This document shows positions 8,599 to 57,219 of a stretch of DNA of 64,000 nt, piece after piece (positions within the stretch are counted from its first letter, which is position 1; the number at the start of each line of letters is the position of its first letter). The position numbers were made by a program, and so were the translations under genes. The notes beneath the pieces were generated by a model. That model worked only from the letters and a program-made list of their open reading frames with translations, was not told the origin of the DNA and did not search any database. Source of the stretch: Candidatus Woesearchaeota archaeon (GTDB taxonomy: Archaea; Nanobdellota; Nanobdellia; Woesearchaeales; JACPJR01); NCBI GenBank assembly GCA_016187565.1, contig JACPJR010000010.1:68596-132595 (forward strand). The letters are read 5' to 3'.

Positions 8599-9486
8599 AT
8601 GGTAACAGTTTCAGTTACAGACCTTTCTGCATATCTTTTTTGTCCTAGAACCCTCTACTTACGACGAGTGTTAAAAATTGTTCCTCCTCCTCGGGAAGTT
8701 ATGGTTAAAGGAACAATTAAGCATGCCATAATAGATCTCATGAATCGGCGAGAGCAAACCATTGTGACTTCTGTGCGAAGATTTATTTCTTATCCAGAGG
8801 TCTATCATATTTATAAAACAACCTATGGAAAACTGTTACGTATGACCATACTCAATAATCATCCTGCCTTAGCTGCTGTCGGTATTAGTGATCAAGAGAT
8901 GTTCCGCCTTGCATGGCCTATGGTTTTGCGTGAAACCGAAGAACGGGCTCAGCATCTTTTTCAGTTCGTGAAAACCAATCAAATCTTTGGTGAGGAACTG
9001 TGGGATCGTCTTGAACCGAAGATTAAGTCAGAATTAAGCATTACCTCTGACAAACTTCAATTAAATGGAGTCGTCGATCAGATTAGAATTTATCCTGATA
9101 AGATTGTTCCTTATGAACTCAAGAGTGGCAAAACTCCACCAGAAGGTGAAATCTGGAAGAGTCACAAAATACAATTGACCGGCTATGCGTTACTTTTGGA
9201 AGAATCCTTTGGAAGGCCAATTAACGAAGGGATTATTCGGTATCTGGATGCTGAACGTCGAACTTCTCACGAAGAGACTTTAGATGTAATACCATCAGTC
9301 CATGATGATCGCATCCTTGCTATCAATCCTTTTTTGCGTGATGAAGTGAAAGCATTAATTCAGAAAGTTCAAATCCTGCTTTCATCACCGATTGTTCCAC
9401 CTAAATGTCCTGAAAAGAAAGGATGTAAAGAATGCATGGCAGACCGACTATCAAGTCCAAAAGAGAGTGCTCCTCTAGAATCATGA
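8599..9486 (+). CDS. Cas4-like / RecB-family PD-(D/E)xK nuclease (DUF83), stand-alone
   Basis: The N-terminus SVTDLSAYLFCPRTLYLRRV carries the Cas4 N-terminal Cys. Nuclease motifs are present (VDQIRIY ... YELKSGK ... QLTGYALLLEE, the QhxxY motif). There is a C-terminal Cys cluster (PKCPEKKGCKEC) consistent with Fe-S ligands. No CRISPR array or other cas genes are in the window. Confidence 0.6.
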   Translation: MVTVSVTDLSAYLFCPRTLYLRRVLKIVPPPREVMVKGTIKHAIIDLMNRREQTIVTSVRRFISYPEVYHIYKTTYGKLLRMTILNNHPALAAVGISDQEMFRLAWPMVLRETEERAQHLFQFVKTNQIFGEELWDRLEPKIKSELSITSDKLQLNGVVDQIRIYPDKIVPYELKSGKTPPEGEIWKSHKIQLTGYALLLEESFGRPINEGIIRYLDAERRTSHEETLDVIPSVHDDRILAINPFLRDEVKALIQKVQILLSSPIVPPKCPEKKGCKECMADRLSSPKESAPLES

Positions 9487-11690: not shown

Positions 11691-11781
11691 TTTGCTGTAG
11701 GAGGCAAAGCCCCATAGCTAACATTCATGGGTTTTCTTTCAAGCCGTTCTTCAGGAACATACGGTACCACTCTTAGAAGAT

Positions 11782-12882
11782 TTAATGATTTGGGCATTTT
11801 ATCTCAATTGCTTTTTCAAAACATTGTTCTAAATGACTTGGATAATAAAGCACAAAATCTCCAGCAGTCATTTGTAAATATTTACAGCCTCTTGGAAAAA
11901 TTTTTAATAATGCAGAGATATTTGGTTTCCCAGGGAGTACTACCCAAACAGGGCATTTTATTTCTTTAAACAATTTATTTAAATGATCGTCTAACTCGTT
12001 AAAGCTGTATCCAATTACAAAAACTCTGCTTGCTTTTGTTAATTCGTTTTTTGCATTTTCCTGGGTAGTATCAAAGTACGCCTGAAAAGAGTTTATCAAC
12101 TTCTTTTTTGTGCCATCATCTAGGGGCGGGATTATTATTTGTTCATATTTTATATCATTTTGTTTGAAACCAATATCATTTCCATAATCGCCCATCTTTT
12201 TTTTACAATCCGTATAACTTAGAAATTTTTTATTATCATTAGTGTAAATAAACAAAAAATCTTTTTTATGACTTTCTTTTTTACTTTGATCAACATAAGC
12301 ATGACCACCATGAATCTTCAAGATTAAAGGATATTTTATCTCTTCATTATTTTTTTTAAATCCGCAATGAATATTCTTGAGTTTAGAAATAGAGGTCTTG
12401 TTTTCATAACATCCTCCAGGAAGTTCACGTTCTATTAAGTTATCATAGTTGGGAGTTATTATTGTATTCTTTTCTCTAATTATCTTTTTATAAAAATCTA
12501 ATCTTTTTTTGTCTTTGAAGTATTTCAAATAATTGAGATATAGCATCCAGTTAATTAAACACATAAAATCTTTTAAGTAGGTAGTATTCTTTTGATTTTG
12601 AAGATAAATTAAAGCCTTACAAATATCCTTTTTTATGGATGAATCTACTCTTGCTAATAAATTGAATATCTTCCTTATATCTTTTTGAAGCACAGCATCA
12701 TCGCAAATTGATTTTTTTTCATTATCCTCCAACCAATTATAATCATACAGAAATTTTATAGATAACTTATCAAATTGAGATATCTGCTCAAACCATTCAC
12801 TTACTAATGGAATGCCGTACTCCTTAGAAAACCCCGCACCTATGAAAAACACGTCTTTTTCATTTGGGTATGTTTTACTCAT
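11782..12882 (-). CDS. SIR2-like domain protein (DHS-like NAD-binding fold; defence-type SIR2_2 family candidate)
   Basis: The N-terminus VFFIGAGFSKEYGIPLVSEW matches the GAGxS...G-x-P nucleotide-binding start of SIR2-like domains. The gene is very AT-rich and Lys/Asn/Tyr-rich relative to its neighbours. The RBS is GAGGAGAG. Confidence 0.5.
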   Translation of the reverse strand: MSKTYPNEKDVFFIGAGFSKEYGIPLVSEWFEQISQFDKLSIKFLYDYNWLEDNEKKSICDDAVLQKDIRKIFNLLARVDSSIKKDICKALIYLQNQKNTTYLKDFMCLINWMLYLNYLKYFKDKKRLDFYKKIIREKNTIITPNYDNLIERELPGGCYENKTSISKLKNIHCGFKKNNEEIKYPLILKIHGGHAYVDQSKKESHKKDFLFIYTNDNKKFLSYTDCKKKMGDYGNDIGFKQNDIKYEQIIIPPLDDGTKKKLINSFQAYFDTTQENAKNELTKASRVFVIGYSFNELDDHLNKLFKEIKCPVWVVLPGKPNISALLKIFPRGCKYLQMTAGDFVLYYPSHLEQCFEKAIEIKCPNH

Positions 12883-13009
12883 TTTAAACTCTCCTCAATG
12901 ATTTTATGTTCTTCTTTTGTTATCCTATTGAGGTTTTAAACTTTTTGAAATCTCTCTTGGTCAATCTCGTCTGATTTCAAGAACTTGTGCATCTTCAGGA
13001 AAATATCCC

Positions 13010-13117
13010 TCAAAAAAAGCAGTCATCACACATTCCATCATACCAGTACTTATTATGCCCGCCGATCTCAATTCCGCATTTGTTGCAGTTGAATTTTTCT
13101 TCTTCAGCATTAGACAT
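13010..13117 (-). CDS. Small zinc-ribbon peptide (35 aa) between the SIR2-like and Schlafen-like genes
   Basis: My own translation of the minus strand gives MSNAEEEKFNCNKCGIEIGGHNKYWYDGMCDDCFF, with two CxxC pairs 16 residues apart. A GGAG lies ~10 nt upstream of the ATG. It is too short for the supplied ORF track. Confidence 0.3.
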   Translation of the reverse strand: MSNAEEEKFNCNKCGIEIGGHNKYWYDGMCDDCFF

Positions 13118-13167
13118 TTTCTATTATCTCCATAAGCGAATATTTCTTTTTGTATTTGCTGATTTTT

Positions 13168-14547
13168 TCATGTTATTACCCCCCAATGCCCACCTTTGTC
13201 GGGGCCGATTCTTTTTAATAACCCTTTTTCTTTTAGCTTTGCAAGATATTCCTTTACCGTTTCAGGGCTTAATTTGAGCTTCAGGGCCATCTCTTCACGG
13301 GTAATTGCGTTGTTTGTGGAAATAAGGTTAAGTATTTCTTCCTCTAACCTTGTGGGTTTCTGGGGGGTTTTCTGGGGGGTTTTCTGGGGGGTTTTCTGGG
13401 GGGAGTACTTTCCGACAATTTTGCCTATTTTATCTTCATCAGGCCTAAGCAAGGTTACAGCAAAGAACTTCCCGAATTCAAAAACTGGCGATTTCAATTC
13501 TGCTTTTTTCATTGCTTCTCTTATCCGGTTTATTCCGCTTCCGACCTGCTCAACTAAATCAGCTTTTTGCATTAAACTAAAGAGCAGGGGGTTTCTTGAC
13601 AGGCTTCTTTTCCCGAATTCTTCCTCTTTAATAATCAATCCGCCGGGGTTGCTGATTTCAACCCTGTCATCAAAAACATCAACCTGAACTCTTGCGCCTT
13701 TTTCCAGATAGTCTCTATGTGCCAAAGCATTGATTAAGCACTCCTTTAAGGACTCTTCTGGAATTTCAAGAATTTCTTTTCTTGGCCCAGAGCCCTCAAT
13801 CCGATAAATGATTTTAAGGTTAGTATACAAAAATTTCATGGAATTTTCATAATTGGACATAATGTCCTCATCAAAATCCTTTTTGTCAATAATATAGGTT
13901 TTATCTTTTCCCTTATAGAGGACGCAAGTAACAACCGCATGAGGGATGAATTGGCTCACATTTTTGCAAAAGAATAGAACCCCTGCGTTCTTGAATTTTC
14001 CATCATCAGTAAGTGTTCCAATATTCTTCAGAATTTCCCTTTCAGGAATTACTCTGCTTATTTTTGCAAGTGCCAGAAAATTGTTAAACTTCTTCCGATC
14101 ATAGCCGTTTTGAAAACCAAATGCAGTATTAGTTGCTTCATCAAATAATATTTTTCTCTCTTTATTAAAAAATTCCCTGATTTCTTCAGTTGATAATTTT
14201 TGGGAATTGGTTCCTTGCCTTAAAAAGAAACCTGCAGAGCACCTATAAGGCTTGTTTATTCCTTCTTTAACATTTATGACTAAAACATTGTCAATTTCTT
14301 CGATAAAAACAGTTACAGGTGGATCGCAGTTCCTTGCAATATCTTGTATCTCTGATTTTAATTTGTTGGTTACCTTAACGCCCCTTATCTCACCTAAATC
14401 AGATATCCCTATGAAAATCTTGCCTCCTTCTGAATTGGTAAAAGCGACAATCTCTTTTGCTATGTTTTTTGAGTCAAAAGACTCTTTGAACTCTGTTTTA
14501 ATTCCTTCTCCATTCTGGATAATAAACTCCAATCCTGTTTTATTCAT
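13168..14547 (-). CDS. Schlafen/AlbA_2 domain ATPase-like protein with a RecG-C-terminal-like HATPase_c_4 domain and C-terminal winged HTH (putative DNA-binding regulator or defence protein)
   Basis: An AlbA_2 signature is present (TEFKESFDSKNIAKEIVAFTNSEGGKIFIGISDLGEIRGV). The middle region matches the RecG-C-like family (LINALAHRDY ... VQVDVFDDRVEISNPGGL). A (PQKT)x4 linker follows, then a C-terminal wHTH (ITREEMALKLKLSPETVKEYLAKLKEKGLLKRIG). Confidence 0.65.
   Translation of the reverse strand: MNKTGLEFIIQNGEGIKTEFKESFDSKNIAKEIVAFTNSEGGKIFIGISDLGEIRGVKVTNKLKSEIQDIARNCDPPVTVFIEEIDNVLVINVKEGINKPYRCSAGFFLRQGTNSQKLSTEEIREFFNKERKILFDEATNTAFGFQNGYDRKKFNNFLALAKISRVIPEREILKNIGTLTDDGKFKNAGVLFFCKNVSQFIPHAVVTCVLYKGKDKTYIIDKKDFDEDIMSNYENSMKFLYTNLKIIYRIEGSGPRKEILEIPEESLKECLINALAHRDYLEKGARVQVDVFDDRVEISNPGGLIIKEEEFGKRSLSRNPLLFSLMQKADLVEQVGSGINRIREAMKKAELKSPVFEFGKFFAVTLLRPDEDKIGKIVGKYSPQKTPQKTPQKTPQKPTRLEEEILNLISTNNAITREEMALKLKLSPETVKEYLAKLKEKGLLKRIGPDKGGHWGVIT
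13353..13404. repeat. Tandem 12-bp repeat (tggggggttttc, ~4.3 copies) encoding the PQKT-repeat linker of the Schlafen-like protein
   Basis: Read directly from the sequence. The repeat is coding and in frame. Confidence 0.85.
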
Positions 14548-14562
14548 ATTCCCAGTCGTCTT

Positions 14563-14660
14563 CTATTATAGCAAAGGACACTAATAACCGTAACTTTATG
14601 TCCTTTGCTTATTAGGAAAAGACATACAAATTATTACGAAAATTAATGTATTTTCCTATA
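14563..14660. repeat. Left copy of a ~98-bp near-perfect inverted repeat (partner at 35850-35947); it contains two internal hairpins and a TATA-like end facing the adjacent gene
   Basis: The reverse complement of 14563-14660 matches 35850-35947 at ~97/98 positions. Internal stems are GCAAAGGACA/TGTCCTTTGC and AGGAAAA(T/G)ACAT/ATGTCTTTTCCT. Confidence 0.85.
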
Positions 14661-14718
14661 GATCCTCTTGTGGCATTTGTTTAGGCATCTCAAATTGAAT
14701 ATATATATATACACAGTA

Positions 14719-32825: not shown

Positions 32826-32895
32826 TTATTAAAAGTTTGATCAAAGGGGTGCAACATAAAGTTGCACATCGCGGCCTTCGTGTTGTCGTAATAAC
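32826..32895. repeat. Copy 1 of a ~55-70-bp repeated hairpin element (copy 2 at 47432-47501)
   Basis: aagtttgatcaaaggggtgcaacataaagttgcacatcgcggccttcgtgttg matches the 47.4-kb copy with 3 mismatches. It contains the perfect stem GTGCAAC-ataaa-GTTGCAC. Confidence 0.75.
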
Positions 32896-32964
32896 CGTGC
32901 CAATAACACCATATTTCCATGCATGTAATAAATATGACTTACTGCCCGTGTTCTGGAGAAAATT

Positions 32965-35842: not shown

Positions 35843-35849
35843 CATTGAA

Positions 35850-35947
35850 CTATAGGAAAAGACATTAATTTTCGTAATAATTTGTATGTCTTTTCCTAAT
35901 AAGCAAAGGACATAAAGTTACGGTTATTAGTGTCCTTTGCTATAGTG
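35850..35947. repeat. Right copy of the ~98-bp inverted repeat (partner 14563-14660)
   Basis: See the left copy. It contains the perfect 12-bp stem AGGAAAAGACAT/ATGTCTTTTCCT and the 10-bp stem GCAAAGGACA/TGTCCTTTGC. It ends ...gctatagtgg ~40 bp upstream of the VIT-family gene. Confidence 0.85.
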
Positions 35948-35986
35948 GATTAAAATGTTGAAATATTTATATAGGGCTAGTGTTTA

Positions 35987-36844
35987 TTGACGTCTATGGA
36001 TGTTATGTTGCAGGCCCAACGAAATGAGATCACTGAGTACCAGATCTATCACGCGTTAGCCAATAAAGTAAATGATTCTCATAATCGTAAGATCTTGGAG
36101 CGTATTGCAAAGGACGAACTCCGGCACTATCGCTTGTTAAAGAAATACACACATCAAGAGGTAAAACCAGATCGCTGGAGGGTAAACCAACACCTCTTGC
36201 TAGCATCCATTTTAGGAGTAACCTTTAGTTTACGATTTATGGAAAAAGGAGAAGTTTTTGCTCAGAAACTTTACCATACCCAGAAAACAGCGCCCTTTGA
36301 TGTGCTGCTTCTGGATGAGCAGAAACATGAGAAGGCCTTGATAGGCATGCTCCACGATCAGAGAATTGCCTATGCTGGTTCTATTGTGTTGGGTTTAAAT
36401 GATGCTTTAGTAGAACTTACCGGAGCACTTGCTGGCTTGAGTTTAGCCTTGGCAAATGGAAAGCTTGTTGCAATCATAGGTTCGATAACCGGATTTGCTG
36501 CAGCGCTTTCAATGGCAGCATCTGAGTACCTTTCCTCTAAAGAGGAAAAAGAAACTGAGAAAAAAGCGCTTACCGGAGCAATCTACACGGGTGTTGCTTA
36601 TCTTGTGACCGTAGCCTTACTGATTTTGCCCTTTCTCTTGCTTACCAATGTCATGGCAGCTATGGTTATCATGCTTTCTACAACTATAGCTATTATCGCT
36701 TTCTACACCTTTTACATAGCAACGGCAAAAGGAACAAGGTTTTGGCCGAGATTTGTTGAAATGAGTGCAATTTCACTTGGTGTTGCCCTCATCAGCTTCT
36801 TTATTGGTTGGCTAGTGCGTGCGTATATTGGTGTAGATGTTTAA
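35987..36844 (+). CDS. VIT1/CCC1-family membrane protein with N-terminal ferritin-like (rubrerythrin-like) domain
   Basis: The N-terminus EITEYQIYHALANK ... IAKDELRHY is a ferritin-like E...ExxH pair. The C-terminal ~5 TM helices are typical of the VIT family. The true start is possibly ATG 35996. Confidence 0.65.
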   Translation: MTSMDVMLQAQRNEITEYQIYHALANKVNDSHNRKILERIAKDELRHYRLLKKYTHQEVKPDRWRVNQHLLLASILGVTFSLRFMEKGEVFAQKLYHTQKTAPFDVLLLDEQKHEKALIGMLHDQRIAYAGSIVLGLNDALVELTGALAGLSLALANGKLVAIIGSITGFAAALSMAASEYLSSKEEKETEKKALTGAIYTGVAYLVTVALLILPFLLLTNVMAAMVIMLSTTIAIIAFYTFYIATAKGTRFWPRFVEMSAISLGVALISFFIGWLVRAYIGVDV

Positions 36845-47284: not shown

Positions 47285-47640
47285 GTAAGCCTTTTATCGT
47301 CACAGCGCCATTGTAGGCGGTGCGACGGTCGTTTCTGCGGAAACGCCCTACGAGTCACCCCGACGGGGTCATCCCCCGACTCGCCGCACGCCCATGGGCG
47401 CTGACGCAACGGGGCTTGCCCCCCAAACTTTACCGAAGTTTGATCAAAAGGGTGCAACATAAAGTTGCACTTCGTGGCCTTCGTGTTGCCTGGATAGCCA
47501 CGGCGAAGAGCTTCATGCTCTTCCTTGCGTGTCAACTGAGCGTAACCAGTTGCGGGGTGTGCGTAGGATTGCTCCTTGAGCAATCCGTCAGCCGCCATAG
47601 TGGTGGCGTGCGTTTTGTGAATTGTGTTTTCAATGAAAAC
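47285..47640. ncRNA. GC-rich, palindrome-dense intergenic element; candidate structured ncRNA of unknown class (strand undetermined)
   Basis: About 60% GC in a ~38% GC context. At least 10 consecutive perfect or near-perfect hairpins are visible: GCG-GAAA-CGC, CGAGTC...GACTCG enclosing GGGG-TCAT-CCCC, GCGCCCATGGGCGC, GTGCAAC-ATAAA-GTTGCAC, GAAGAGC-TTCAT-GCTCTTC, CAACTG-AGCGTAAC-CAGTTG, and GGATTGC-TCCTTGA-GCAATCC. The ORFs across it are R-rich GC artefacts. Confidence 0.3.
47432..47501. repeat. Copy 2 of the ~55-70-bp repeated hairpin element (copy 1 at 32826-32895), embedded in the GC-rich element
   Basis: aagtttgatcaaaagggtgcaacataaagttgcacttcgtggccttcgtgttg. Confidence 0.75.
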
Positions 47641-55153: not shown

Positions 55154-55375
55154 AGTGAAGCAGGAATAAGGATTTTACAATATGAACAGAGACCGTAATC
55201 TTTTTTGCTGAAACTCCTTGCTGATCATAGTTGATTTGTCACCCTGTCACCAAAGTATACGCCAAGCTGGTTTACCATCTGACTCCAGTCTCTGACTGTC
55301 TGCCGTTTCTCATATGAGTCGATAACTACCAGGTACAGCAGCTTGAACAAATCATCTTCTATTTTTAGAAGCTCA

Positions 55376-55650
55376 AAATAATGGCTCCATGACAATTGGT
55401 GAGACAGTGTCTCACTTTTTTGGTATTTCAGATAAAACAGCCTCATAGATATATCAGATTGCTTTTGCTAAACCCTTTCCCATACATCAGTTTCAAGTCT
55501 TTAGAAAGGTTTTCTAAGAGTGCTGAGAATTAATCAGTGCAGAATAATAATTTTTTCTTTTCATAAACCCCACCGAATAAAGAAACACTTGCACATACTT
55601 ATAAATATTCTGTTTACTGGCGGTGTATGGGAAAGTAATTCTGTAATCCG
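55376..55650. repeat. Direct repeat A (~275 bp) flanking the MNT-HEPN cassette
   Basis: About 97% identical to 56941-57219. The only indel is a 6-bp gcaagg insertion in copy B. Confidence 0.85.
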
Positions 55651-55754: not shown

Positions 55755-56327
55755 ATGAAGCCGGAAGAAAAGGTTTACAAGGCGTATTTTGAAAGTAAGA
55801 AAAGCACCCTTTACTTCAATGAAATAAAGGGGTTGTCAAAACTATCAGACAGCTCTTTAACAAACACGTTAAACAAGCTTACAAAAAACAACACTCTAAC
55901 CCAAGAAAAAACAAAATCAAACACGTTCTATAAAATAAAAGATAAAAAACTGTTTGCTTTAAAATTCTCAGAAATTGCAATACAAAAATTTAATGAGCTA
56001 AATATTGGAGTAAAAACACCGTTGAGAAACTTCTTAAGAGAAATTCCTAAAGAAGTCTATACCATTGTTCTTTTTGGATCTGCCTCAAGAAGAGAAGAAC
56101 AAAAAGAAAGCGATATTGACCTGCTAATAATCTCAAACAAAAAAATAGACTTAACCGAGAATAAAAAAGAGGCAGAAATAACTTCAAAACATCCAATTTC
56201 AATATTCCAAGCAACCATCAGCCAATTTACCGAAAACAAAGACGATATCGTCATTCAGGTAAGAAAAACAGGCTTTCCAATTTACAAAGAACAGAATTTT
56301 TACGAGGTAATGTTAGGTGAATATTGA
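55755..56327 (+). CDS. Minimal nucleotidyltransferase (MNT/MntA-like) with N-terminal wHTH; antitoxin-type partner of a HEPN protein
   Basis: LFGSASRREEQKESDIDLLII matches the GS-x(9-13)-D-x-D Pol-beta nucleotidyltransferase motif. The N-terminal 90 aa is helical and K-rich. Confidence 0.7.
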   Translation: MKPEEKVYKAYFESKKSTLYFNEIKGLSKLSDSSLTNTLNKLTKNNTLTQEKTKSNTFYKIKDKKLFALKFSEIAIQKFNELNIGVKTPLRNFLREIPKEVYTIVLFGSASRREEQKESDIDLLIISNKKIDLTENKKEAEITSKHPISIFQATISQFTENKDDIVIQVRKTGFPIYKEQNFYEVMLGEY

Positions 56328-56817
56328 AAGATTGTTTGATGATAAGAAGTATTTGGAAAATGAACTAAACTTTTTCATAAGAAAAAAGCATATCAAGAGA
56401 ATTCCAGAAAACAAAGAATTAGTAAATTCCCATCTCAAAAAAGCAAGGCATAATATAGAATTTTACAAATTAAACAAAGAGCATCATAAATTCAATGACT
56501 GGCTTATTGTAACTTTATACTATGCACTTTATCATTCAGCGTTGGCATTAATAACAAACAAAAGATTTTCCTCAAAAAATCATTATGCAACAATTCTCAT
56601 CCTCGTAAAAGAATACCCTCTAACAAAAGATGAAGCAAAATTGTTAAATGAATTATCCATAAATAAAGATGATGCAGAGCTTTACACTCAATTAAAAGAT
56701 GACAGGCACGATGCAAGTTATGCAACAAATATCAAATTCAACCAAAAAACAATAGATAACTATGAAAATAAAGTCCTAGATTTCATCAACAAAACAGAAG
56801 AATTGATACAAAGATGA
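56317..56817 (+). CDS. HEPN-domain protein (HepT-like toxin partner of the MNT)
   Basis: It overlaps the MNT stop, with a GTG start at 56317. The helical domain (WLIVTLYYALYHSALALITNK ... HYATI) fits the HEPN family pattern. The MNT-HEPN gene order is conserved. Confidence 0.65.
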   Translation: MNIERLFDDKKYLENELNFFIRKKHIKRIPENKELVNSHLKKARHNIEFYKLNKEHHKFNDWLIVTLYYALYHSALALITNKRFSSKNHYATILILVKEYPLTKDEAKLLNELSINKDDAELYTQLKDDRHDASYATNIKFNQKTIDNYENKVLDFINKTEELIQR

Positions 56818-56940: not shown

Positions 56941-57219
56941 AAAATAATGGATCCATGACAATTGGTGAGACAGTGTCTCACTTTTTTGGTATTTCAGATA
57001 AAACAGCCTCATAGATATATCAGATTGCTTTTGCTAAACCCTTTCCCATACATCAGTTTCAAGTCTTTAGAAAGGTTTTCTAAGAGTGCTGAGAATTAAT
57101 CAGTGCAGAATAATAATTTTTTCTTTTCATAAACCCCACCGAATAAAGAAACACTTGCACATACTTATAAATATTCTGTTTACTGGCGGTGTATGGGAGC
57201 AAGGTAATTCTGTAATCCG
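56941..57219. repeat. Direct repeat B (~279 bp) flanking the MNT-HEPN cassette
   Basis: Matches 55376-55650. It is followed directly by the 30-bp palindromic repeat. Confidence 0.85.

Follow-up and report, generated by a model that had tools for sequence, protein, structure and literature searches.

We examined a stretch of 64,000 nucleotides (nt) from a Candidatus Woesearchaeota archaeon (GenBank assembly GCA_016187565.1, contig JACPJR010000010.1, positions 68,596 to 132,595 of the forward strand), called the window below, in which a reading made from the sequence alone had picked out a Schlafen-like gene, a zinc-ribbon peptide and a SIR2-like gene as a candidate three-part defence system that it could not match to any named one. 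An open reading frame (ORF) check of the window found three co-oriented ORFs of 459, 35 and 366 amino acids (aa) in a row on the minus strand, just where this sequence-only reading had placed them (Table 1). The Schlafen gene is separated from the zinc-ribbon ORF by 50 nt and the latter from the SIR2 gene by 127 nt, giving a gap of 285 nt between the two large genes, and the region is flanked by housekeeping genes, one for TruD and one for an AbrB-domain protein.

Table 1. Features of the locus, in window positions; RM, restriction-modification.
Feature	Position	Strand	Basis or remark
Schlafen protein, Slfn-GHKL('HisKinase')-wHTH class, 459 aa	13168-14547	-	Pfam, motifs, homologues
35-aa zinc-ribbon-like ORF, CxxC-x16-CxxC	13010-13117	-	Cys pattern and GGAG ribosome-binding site
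Short stand-alone SIR2_2 protein, 366 aa	11782-12882	-	Pfam, PADLOC, AlphaFold2/Foldseek, motifs
Relic of an MmeI/Eco57I-family (type IIG) RM gene, 3' end	12883-12935	-	tblastn and shuffle-tested alignment
12-nt tandem repeat, 3.9 copies, 100% matching	13357-13403	-	encodes the PQKT linker of the Schlafen protein
Inverted repeat, left arm, 103 nt	14562-14664		partner at 35847-35949

Pfam searches of the Schlafen protein recovered all three domains that had been proposed for it, namely SLFN_AlbA_2 (PF04326) at residues 14-118 (E-value 1.1e-20, 74.7 bits against a cut-off of 25.3), HATPase_c_4 (PF13749) at residues 284-366 (7.7e-23, 80.7 bits) and, for the C-terminal winged helix-turn-helix (wHTH), HTH_24 at residues 401-445 (1.3e-7, 31.5 bits). 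The nuclease motif Ex4(E/D)xK, defined in PMC13056530, is intact at residues 14-21 (E14-GIKT-E19-F-K21), an N-box-like GHKL motif (E269-x3-N273) lies just upstream of the HATPase_c_4 match, and a linker of PQKT repeats (residues 383-394) joins the ATPase to the wHTH. Within the tandem repeat encoding this linker, two independent Logan contigs from the same genome come to an end, and the exact 459-aa sequence is absent from the protein collection. Homologues are abundant, with at least 1647 at E<=1e-20 among the 8000 candidates scored. Moreover, PADLOC models of the argonaute-associated (Aga) type matched the protein, SIR2-PNTD1-PNTD2 over residues 181-306 (1.9e-12) and SIR2-Kinase-PNTD1-PNTD2 over residues 243-305 (1.1e-7). 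A connection with prokaryotic argonautes (pAgos) was considered and dismissed, since SLFN-pAgos carry SLFN-GHKL fusions that explain the pAgo/Aga matches (bioRxiv 10.64898/2026.05.29.728809); no pAgo was matched among the ORFs scanned, ten of which were run against PADLOC, and a literature search for 'PNTD1/PNTD2' returned nothing relevant.

This domain architecture has already been described several times. Slfn-HisKinase-HTH proteins are the second commonest class of prokaryotic Schlafens, making up 19.2% of 5,930, and are treated as single-gene sensor-effector fusions; for 69.6% of these genes a defence gene was reported no more than 10 kb away (Perez Taboada et al., Nat Microbiol 2026, PMC13056530). 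A 'Schlafen RNase + minimal histidine kinase + wHTH' has been reported from at least 1017 taxa, where it is associated, as an auxiliary effector, with BREX and related loci (NAR 2026, PMC12839542), and the Slfn-GHKL pair has been named 'Schlatpase', most such proteins being small and having or lacking a C-terminal HTH (bioRxiv 10.64898/2026.05.29.728809). The window protein has in common with the HisKinase-HTH or 'Schlatpase' Schlafens the AlbA_2 domain with its Ex4ExK motif, the PF13749 GHKL ATPase, the C-terminal wHTH, a size of about 450 aa and the occurrence as a single gene in variable defence-type neighbourhoods; it differs from them by its DPANN archaeal host and its PQKT tandem-repeat linker. 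Its architecture is also identical to that of the Schlafen-minimal histidine kinase-wHTH 'backup effectors' embedded in BREX and BREX-related loci (PMC12839542), and there is an overlap between the gene of the closest homologue (87% identical, locus L016) and the end of an Eco57I/PglX-type methylase gene, whereas the window Schlafen gene has no RM or BREX gene beside it and is preceded by a repeat element and then by a housekeeping gene. We see in the Schlafen gene an ordinary representative of a single-gene class that is published and very abundant.

The SIR2 protein, which is 100% identical to the NCBI entry HYW21_03070, has the GAGxS nucleotide-binding start that had been read in it (GAGFS at residues 15-19), and its recognisable motifs are GAGFSK (15-20), TPNYD (143-147), KIHG (189-192) and GYS (291-293). 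Conserved residues of these motifs, among them G15, A16, G17, S19, N145, D147, K189, H191 and G192, show no variation across 55 short SIR2_2 proteins, and among these positions we take the Asn of TxNYD and the His of KxHG to be catalytic, from what is known of ThsA and DSR2. Pfam placed the protein in SIR2_2 (PF13289) with 25.1 bits against a cut-off of 24.5, and the PADLOC 'SIR2' models matched it more clearly (7.2e-12). The search of its sequence against Protein Data Bank (PDB) chains gave chance matches only, and the fold was therefore taken from prediction. With the AlphaFold2 model (pLDDT 79.3, pTM 0.80), Foldseek returned as best PDB matches the SIR2 subunits of SIR2-HerA (E 3.8e-8, TM about 0.4, probability 1.00), and classical sirtuins and ThsA ranked lower. 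No match to the sirtuin family PF02146 was found at E<=0.1 and none to any NCBIfam model; lacking a family match, and with sirtuin structures ranking below the SIR2-HerA subunits, a housekeeping sirtuin identity was rejected. Thus both large genes are of defence type rather than housekeeping, as had been proposed, the one encoding a SIR2_2 protein without PF02146 and the other carrying a Schlafen nuclease motif within a published architecture.

Among known systems, the SIR2 protein most resembles the SIR2 subunit of SIR2-HerA (Nezha), with which it shares its best structural matches (8sub, 8uae, 8j4u and 8wld; Foldseek E 4e-8 to 1e-5), its best PADLOC 'SIR2' models, a size of about 350-400 aa and the GAGxS, NYD and HG motifs; however, identity is only 12-16% at a TM of about 0.4, with no sequence-level PDB match, and a HerA (DUF87/FtsK-like) gene was found neither near the window SIR2 gene, in scans that covered part of the ORFs, nor in the loci of its relatives. 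With Thoeris ThsA, DSR1/DSR2, SIR2-APAZ/pAgo (SPARSA) and Avs5 it has in common the SIR2 catalytic core and presumably NAD+ depletion, but it has no SLOG, no large C-terminal sensor, no APAZ/pAgo and no STAND domain, and consists only of the core and a conserved tail of 40 residues. Pfam and PADLOC matched no HerA, pAgo, ThsB or other partner among the neighbours scanned. The subfamily itself is small: a k-mer-indexed search gave six clusters at 46-100% identity, below which the score drops from >560 bits to 58 bits, an exhaustive profile search gave 6 proteins at E<=1e-30, 14 at E<=1e-10 and 780 at E<=1e-3, and extra scans of metagenome and genome collections added two more relatives only, 30% identical. 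The contigs that carry the subfamily are DPANN-type archaeal or unassigned metagenome contigs. The SIR2 gene represents a new, rare and divergent member of SIR2_2, and its product is most likely an NAD+-consuming effector.

The peptide between the two large genes is the only one among 341 short ORFs (25-70 aa) of the window to show the pattern CxxC-x(8-30)-CxxC, and GGAG precedes its ATG by 10 nt, so that the zinc-ribbon pattern and the ribosome-binding site described for it are indeed present; it has no detectable homologue, and the protein collection lacks this exact sequence. What gene callers chose in its place is a singleton, a 49-aa ORF that overlaps it in a different frame, and neither of the two gave a tblastn match in any fetched related locus. 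As there is no homologue or called copy, it is the Cys pattern together with the ribosome-binding site that speaks for the reality of this ORF, which may encode a real small protein, one with no demonstrable tie to the Schlafen or the SIR2 gene.

Comparison of gene neighbourhoods did not bear out the proposal that the three genes make up one new system. No Schlafen or similar zinc-ribbon gene neighbours SIR2 in the other lineages of the SIR2 subfamily (0/5), and no SIR2 gene neighbours the Schlafen gene in the loci of its homologues (0/5, 62-87% identical). The defence-type families to which the sequence-only reading had pointed were matched by Pfam and PADLOC, but a conserved co-occurrence of the three genes was absent from these loci. 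The SIR2 relatives were found in diverse settings: the 68% identical one (P0002) overlaps another ORF; the 55% identical one (P0003) comes after PolD DP2 and a membrane protein; P0004 comes after a DUF4389 gene; upstream of the 47% identical one (P0005) lie a 48-aa zinc-ribbon gene and then a 1010-aa MmeI/Eco57I/PglX-like type IIG RM gene, whose stop codon is 1 nt away, and downstream of it lie HTH-M78/DUF4411 genes and a DUF2779 gene; and the 46% identical one (P0006) overlaps the stop of a 105-aa MmeI-type methylase fragment, with AbiEii nearby. DUF2779 proteins adjoin the SIR2 gene in the relatives L004-L011. The two 30% identical relatives come after a gene for a DUF4011-helicase-MTES_1575 nuclease and one for a membrane protein. 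In L020 (1139-6678) and L021 (68-2808), the SIR2 relatives at 30% identity close an array in which a gene for a DUF4011-AAA_11/12 helicase-MTES_1575 nuclease and one for a 222-aa membrane protein come first and an 8-nt overlap precedes SIR2; the array is another candidate SIR2-containing operon. Remoter short SIR2_2 genes occur singly in defence islands that also contain AbiE, type I RM or a separate SIR2-HerA pair, and L030 has both a solo short SIR2 gene and, apart from it, a true SIR2-HerA pair.

The homologues of the Schlafen gene were varied in their surroundings, the closest one lying between the Eco57I-type gene whose end it overlaps and an overlapping downstream gene for a Cys-rich 211-aa protein, the 78% identical one having a Lit-family membrane protein gene downstream, the 65% identical one lying within a ParE/HicA island and the 62% identical one among RPA/RadA genes. 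Genes of 211 aa overlap the Schlafen stop by 4 nt both in L016 (2137-2772; Cys-rich, no Pfam match) and in L012 (3500-4135; Lit-family, PF07314), and these differing genes may be variable downstream partners for the Schlafen clade. At the DNA level, similarity to L016 (86%) spans window positions 14551-13166 only and that of the SIR2 gene to L017 (73%) positions 12896-11784 only; since DNA similarity ends at the gene borders, the Schlafen and SIR2 genes behave as separate cassettes.

The SIR2 gene also retains a trace of a different partner. The 54 nt 5' of its ATG encode LNRITKEEHKIIEESLK followed by a stop codon, corresponding to about 18 codons of the 3' end of an RM gene, and this relic has an in-frame stop before it, while its own stop overlaps the SIR2 ATG (ATGA). 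With 14/18 identical positions, tblastn aligned the relic to the C-terminus of a 105-aa ORF that precedes SIR2 in L010 and carries an MmeI_Mtase fragment; the local alignment scored 64-65 against a shuffle mean of 21-23, and 0 of 300-500 shuffles reached this score. Its match to the full RM C-terminus in L004 was weaker, with 3/300 shuffles reaching the score. A weaker relic is present 5' of SIR2 in L003 as well (0/300 shuffles against L010), and none was seen in L018 or L021. In L004-L009 a complete RM gene lies upstream of SIR2, and the SIR2 start follows the RM stop codon by 1 nt in one relative lineage and overlaps the stop of the RM fragment in another. Because an RM gene, fragment or relic lies 5' of SIR2 in four of the six subfamily lineages, the ancestral partner of SIR2 appears to have been a type IIG RM enzyme and not a Schlafen. 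In comparison with type IIG MmeI/Eco57I/PglX-like RM enzymes that have accessory effectors, the relatives place SIR2 directly after or over the RM stop and the window keeps the 3' relic, but the window lacks the RM gene itself. The arrangement that had seemed unrecognised consists of a Schlafen architecture already published and abundant, and of a SIR2 gene that carries the relic of another partner.

Both ends of the SIR2 gene stand out by their conservation. The C-terminal 42 residues of the protein are highly conserved, and the last 127 nt of the gene (11781-11907) are 82-85% identical in DNA among the genes of the window, L004, L010 and L017, with third codon positions 0.71-0.79 identical, in proteins that are only 46-47% identical overall; the 5' junction, which includes the RM relic and the ribosome-binding site, is likewise unusually conserved. 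These conserved cassette ends suggest either mosaic recombination at the ends or a constraint at the nucleotide level. No description of an RM-SIR2 operon or of a stand-alone short SIR2 system was found in our literature searches. We regard it as possible, if rather doubtful, that the short SIR2 subfamily, which occurs mostly in DPANN-type archaeal contexts, would be the abortive-infection arm of an undescribed operon composed of a small zinc-ribbon protein, a type IIG (MmeI/PglX-like) RM enzyme and a translationally coupled SIR2 NADase, and that a SIR2 cassette with the conserved 5' junction and 3' 127 nt would move and persist alone after loss of the RM gene.

The markedly higher AT content noted for the SIR2 gene is real, as its GC content is 0.284 against 0.403 +/- 0.027 for 34 other window genes, 4.4 standard deviations lower. 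The horizontal acquisition that it had been taken to suggest is plausible for the genes of the locus, given the atypical GC and the DNA similarity bounded by single genes. Furthermore, separate archaeal transcription units may be indicated by a T7 run at 13012-13018, within the 3' end of the 35-aa ORF, and by a TTTAAAA box at 12934-12940, which lies 55 nt ahead of the ATG of SIR2. A scan for sigma-70 promoters and intrinsic terminators stayed at the background level, such bacterial models being unsuited to archaea.

We consider it probable that the locus is a small defence islet made up of two independent gene cassettes of known kinds, set between housekeeping genes. This reading is built on the domains, the motifs, the fold, the absence of conserved linkage, the RM relic and the cassette-sized homology, and from it we infer a tRNase activity, an NADase activity, a role in defence and separate transcription. 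In the SLFN-pAgos, ATP binding to the GHKL domain leads to tetramerisation and thereby to an active tRNase (bioRxiv 10.64898/2026.05.29.728809). By analogy with such characterised relatives, the first cassette, a single-gene Slfn-GHKL ATPase-wHTH protein, would oligomerise upon ATP binding to its GHKL domain and so assemble the Schlafen RNase, which would then cut tRNA and stop translation in infected cells, with the wHTH perhaps acting as a sensor or autoregulator. The second cassette would be an orphaned short SIR2_2 enzyme with a predicted capacity to destroy NAD+. Its ancestor would have stood last in a type IIG (MmeI/Eco57I/PglX-like) RM operon, translationally coupled there; the RM gene would have been lost in this genome, leaving about 18 codons of its 3' end before SIR2, and an effector that once backed up the RM enzyme may now stand alone.

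Several points weigh against the islet reading. The Pfam SIR2_2 score is marginal and the structural TM-scores are 0.40-0.47, and NADase activity for this SIR2 subfamily is a prediction. Those HisKinase-type Schlafens that were tried in E. coli did not protect it against the phages of the panel used (PMC13056530), so that a defence role of this class is still inferential. Co-orientation and the 285-nt gap are compatible with co-transcription of the genes in this genome. In addition, the comparative sample is small, comprising six SIR2 clusters and five Schlafen contexts, with the RM-linked L004-L009 amounting to essentially one lineage.

How far these reservations favour other explanations can be judged from the same evidence. 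We find it very improbable that the three genes constitute one functional three-component system, for example a Schlafen/HTH sensor with a SIR2 NAD+-depleting effector, which would be new for archaea: no co-occurrence was found in any SIR2 relative or in the five Schlafen relatives, homology stops at the gene borders, the relic before SIR2 comes from another partner, no homologue of the zinc-ribbon ORF was found, the gaps of 50 and 127 nt contrast with the 4-nt overlaps in relatives, and the T7 run ending the zinc-ribbon ORF and the TTTAAAA box might be read as an archaeal terminator and promoter. Such a system would nevertheless account for the adjacency and co-orientation of the genes and for the defence-type nature of both large ones, and the variable overlapping genes downstream of the closest Schlafen homologues are readable as swappable effectors; the match of the Aga SIR2-fusion models to the Schlafen protein also implies that in some argonaute-associated proteins SIR2 is fused to a domain related to that of the Schlafen protein. 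Somewhat less remote, though still unlikely, is the explanation that SIR2, and perhaps the zinc-ribbon ORF, are decaying and functionless remnants of a zinc-ribbon / type IIG RM / SIR2 operon from which the RM gene was deleted. The gene order zinc-ribbon (48 aa), RM, SIR2 in L004, L007 and L009 parallels the window order of zinc-ribbon (35 aa), RM relic and SIR2, and the RM gene has decayed in L010 too, where the 105-aa fragment is left; but the SIR2 ORF is intact and keeps all residues invariant across the 55 family members, and SIR2 has been kept without RM in at least four lineages, which argues for a function on its own. As the 35-aa and 48-aa zinc-ribbon peptides have no significant similarity, a tie of the former to the L004-type zinc-ribbon gene, by which the window would hold a zinc-ribbon-deltaRM-SIR2 operon, is attractive but unsupported.

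The two genes might alternatively have no role in defence, the Slfn-GHKL-wHTH protein being a transcription regulator, as in the old COG2865 annotation, and the SIR2 protein a deacylase or ADP-ribosyltransferase. The wHTH domain of the Schlafen protein would suit a regulator, one Schlafen homologue lies among replication and repair genes, and 30.4% of prokaryotic Schlafens have no known defence gene nearby, besides the failure of the tested HisKinase fusions to protect against phages (PMC13056530). We nonetheless judge such roles improbable in view of the intact Ex4ExK nuclease motif, the match of the SIR2 protein to SIR2_2 and defence SIR2 models and not to the sirtuin family, the RM, toxin-antitoxin and Abi neighbourhoods of the relatives and a composition atypical for the genome. 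The reading as an islet of two independent defence cassettes is thus the one that we prefer.

The inverted repeat next to the islet is a separate matter. It had been described as a 98-bp repeat abutting the module, and its left arm does end 14 nt before the Schlafen ATG, but its length is 103 nt; the arms, at 14562-14664 and 35847-35949, are 96% complementary and 21 kb apart. An outward-reading gene begins close beyond either arm; on the left this is the Schlafen gene and on the right one for a rubrerythrin-VIT1 fusion (35987-36844). The repeat contains a 12-bp hairpin (GCAAAGGACAC...GTGTCCTTTGC) with an RNA fold z-score of -3.2. The idea that it bounds a mobile defence element was rejected, as the 21-kb interval holds housekeeping genes and the right arm precedes the rubrerythrin-VIT1 gene. 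Probably the repeat is not part of the defence genes, and it could be a shared promoter/5' untranslated region element, a small RNA or an element resembling miniature inverted-repeat transposable elements (MITEs).

Among the neighbours scanned, the only further defence-type gene within 10 kb encodes a solo Cas4-like PD-(D/E)XK nuclease (8599-9486; PADLOC Cas4d 2.9e-24), beside which no CRISPR array or further cas gene was found in the part of the window examined. Elsewhere in the window, perfect direct repeats of 258 nt (55375-55632 and 56941-57198) bracket a gene for an MNT-type nucleotidyltransferase (NTP_transf_2/Polbeta; 55755-56327) and an overlapping 166-aa gene (56317-56817) with no Pfam match, a pair that looks like an MNT/HEPN-style toxin-antitoxin. 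A direct repeat of 64 nt, 88% identical, occurs at 32833-32896 and 47436-47499, 14.6 kb apart.

In summary, the locus brings together two eukaryote-like immune effector families, a Schlafen RNase and a SIR2 NADase as predicted from their domains, in the reduced genome of a DPANN archaeon, and it enlarges the sparse record of defence genes from these organisms. It also cautions that two defence-type genes do not amount to a system by being neighbours with the same orientation in one genome. As the most original lead we see the recurrent coupling of RM and SIR2 genes in DPANN archaea, which, if true, would be a new case in which an NAD+-depleting suicide effector backs up a restriction enzyme.

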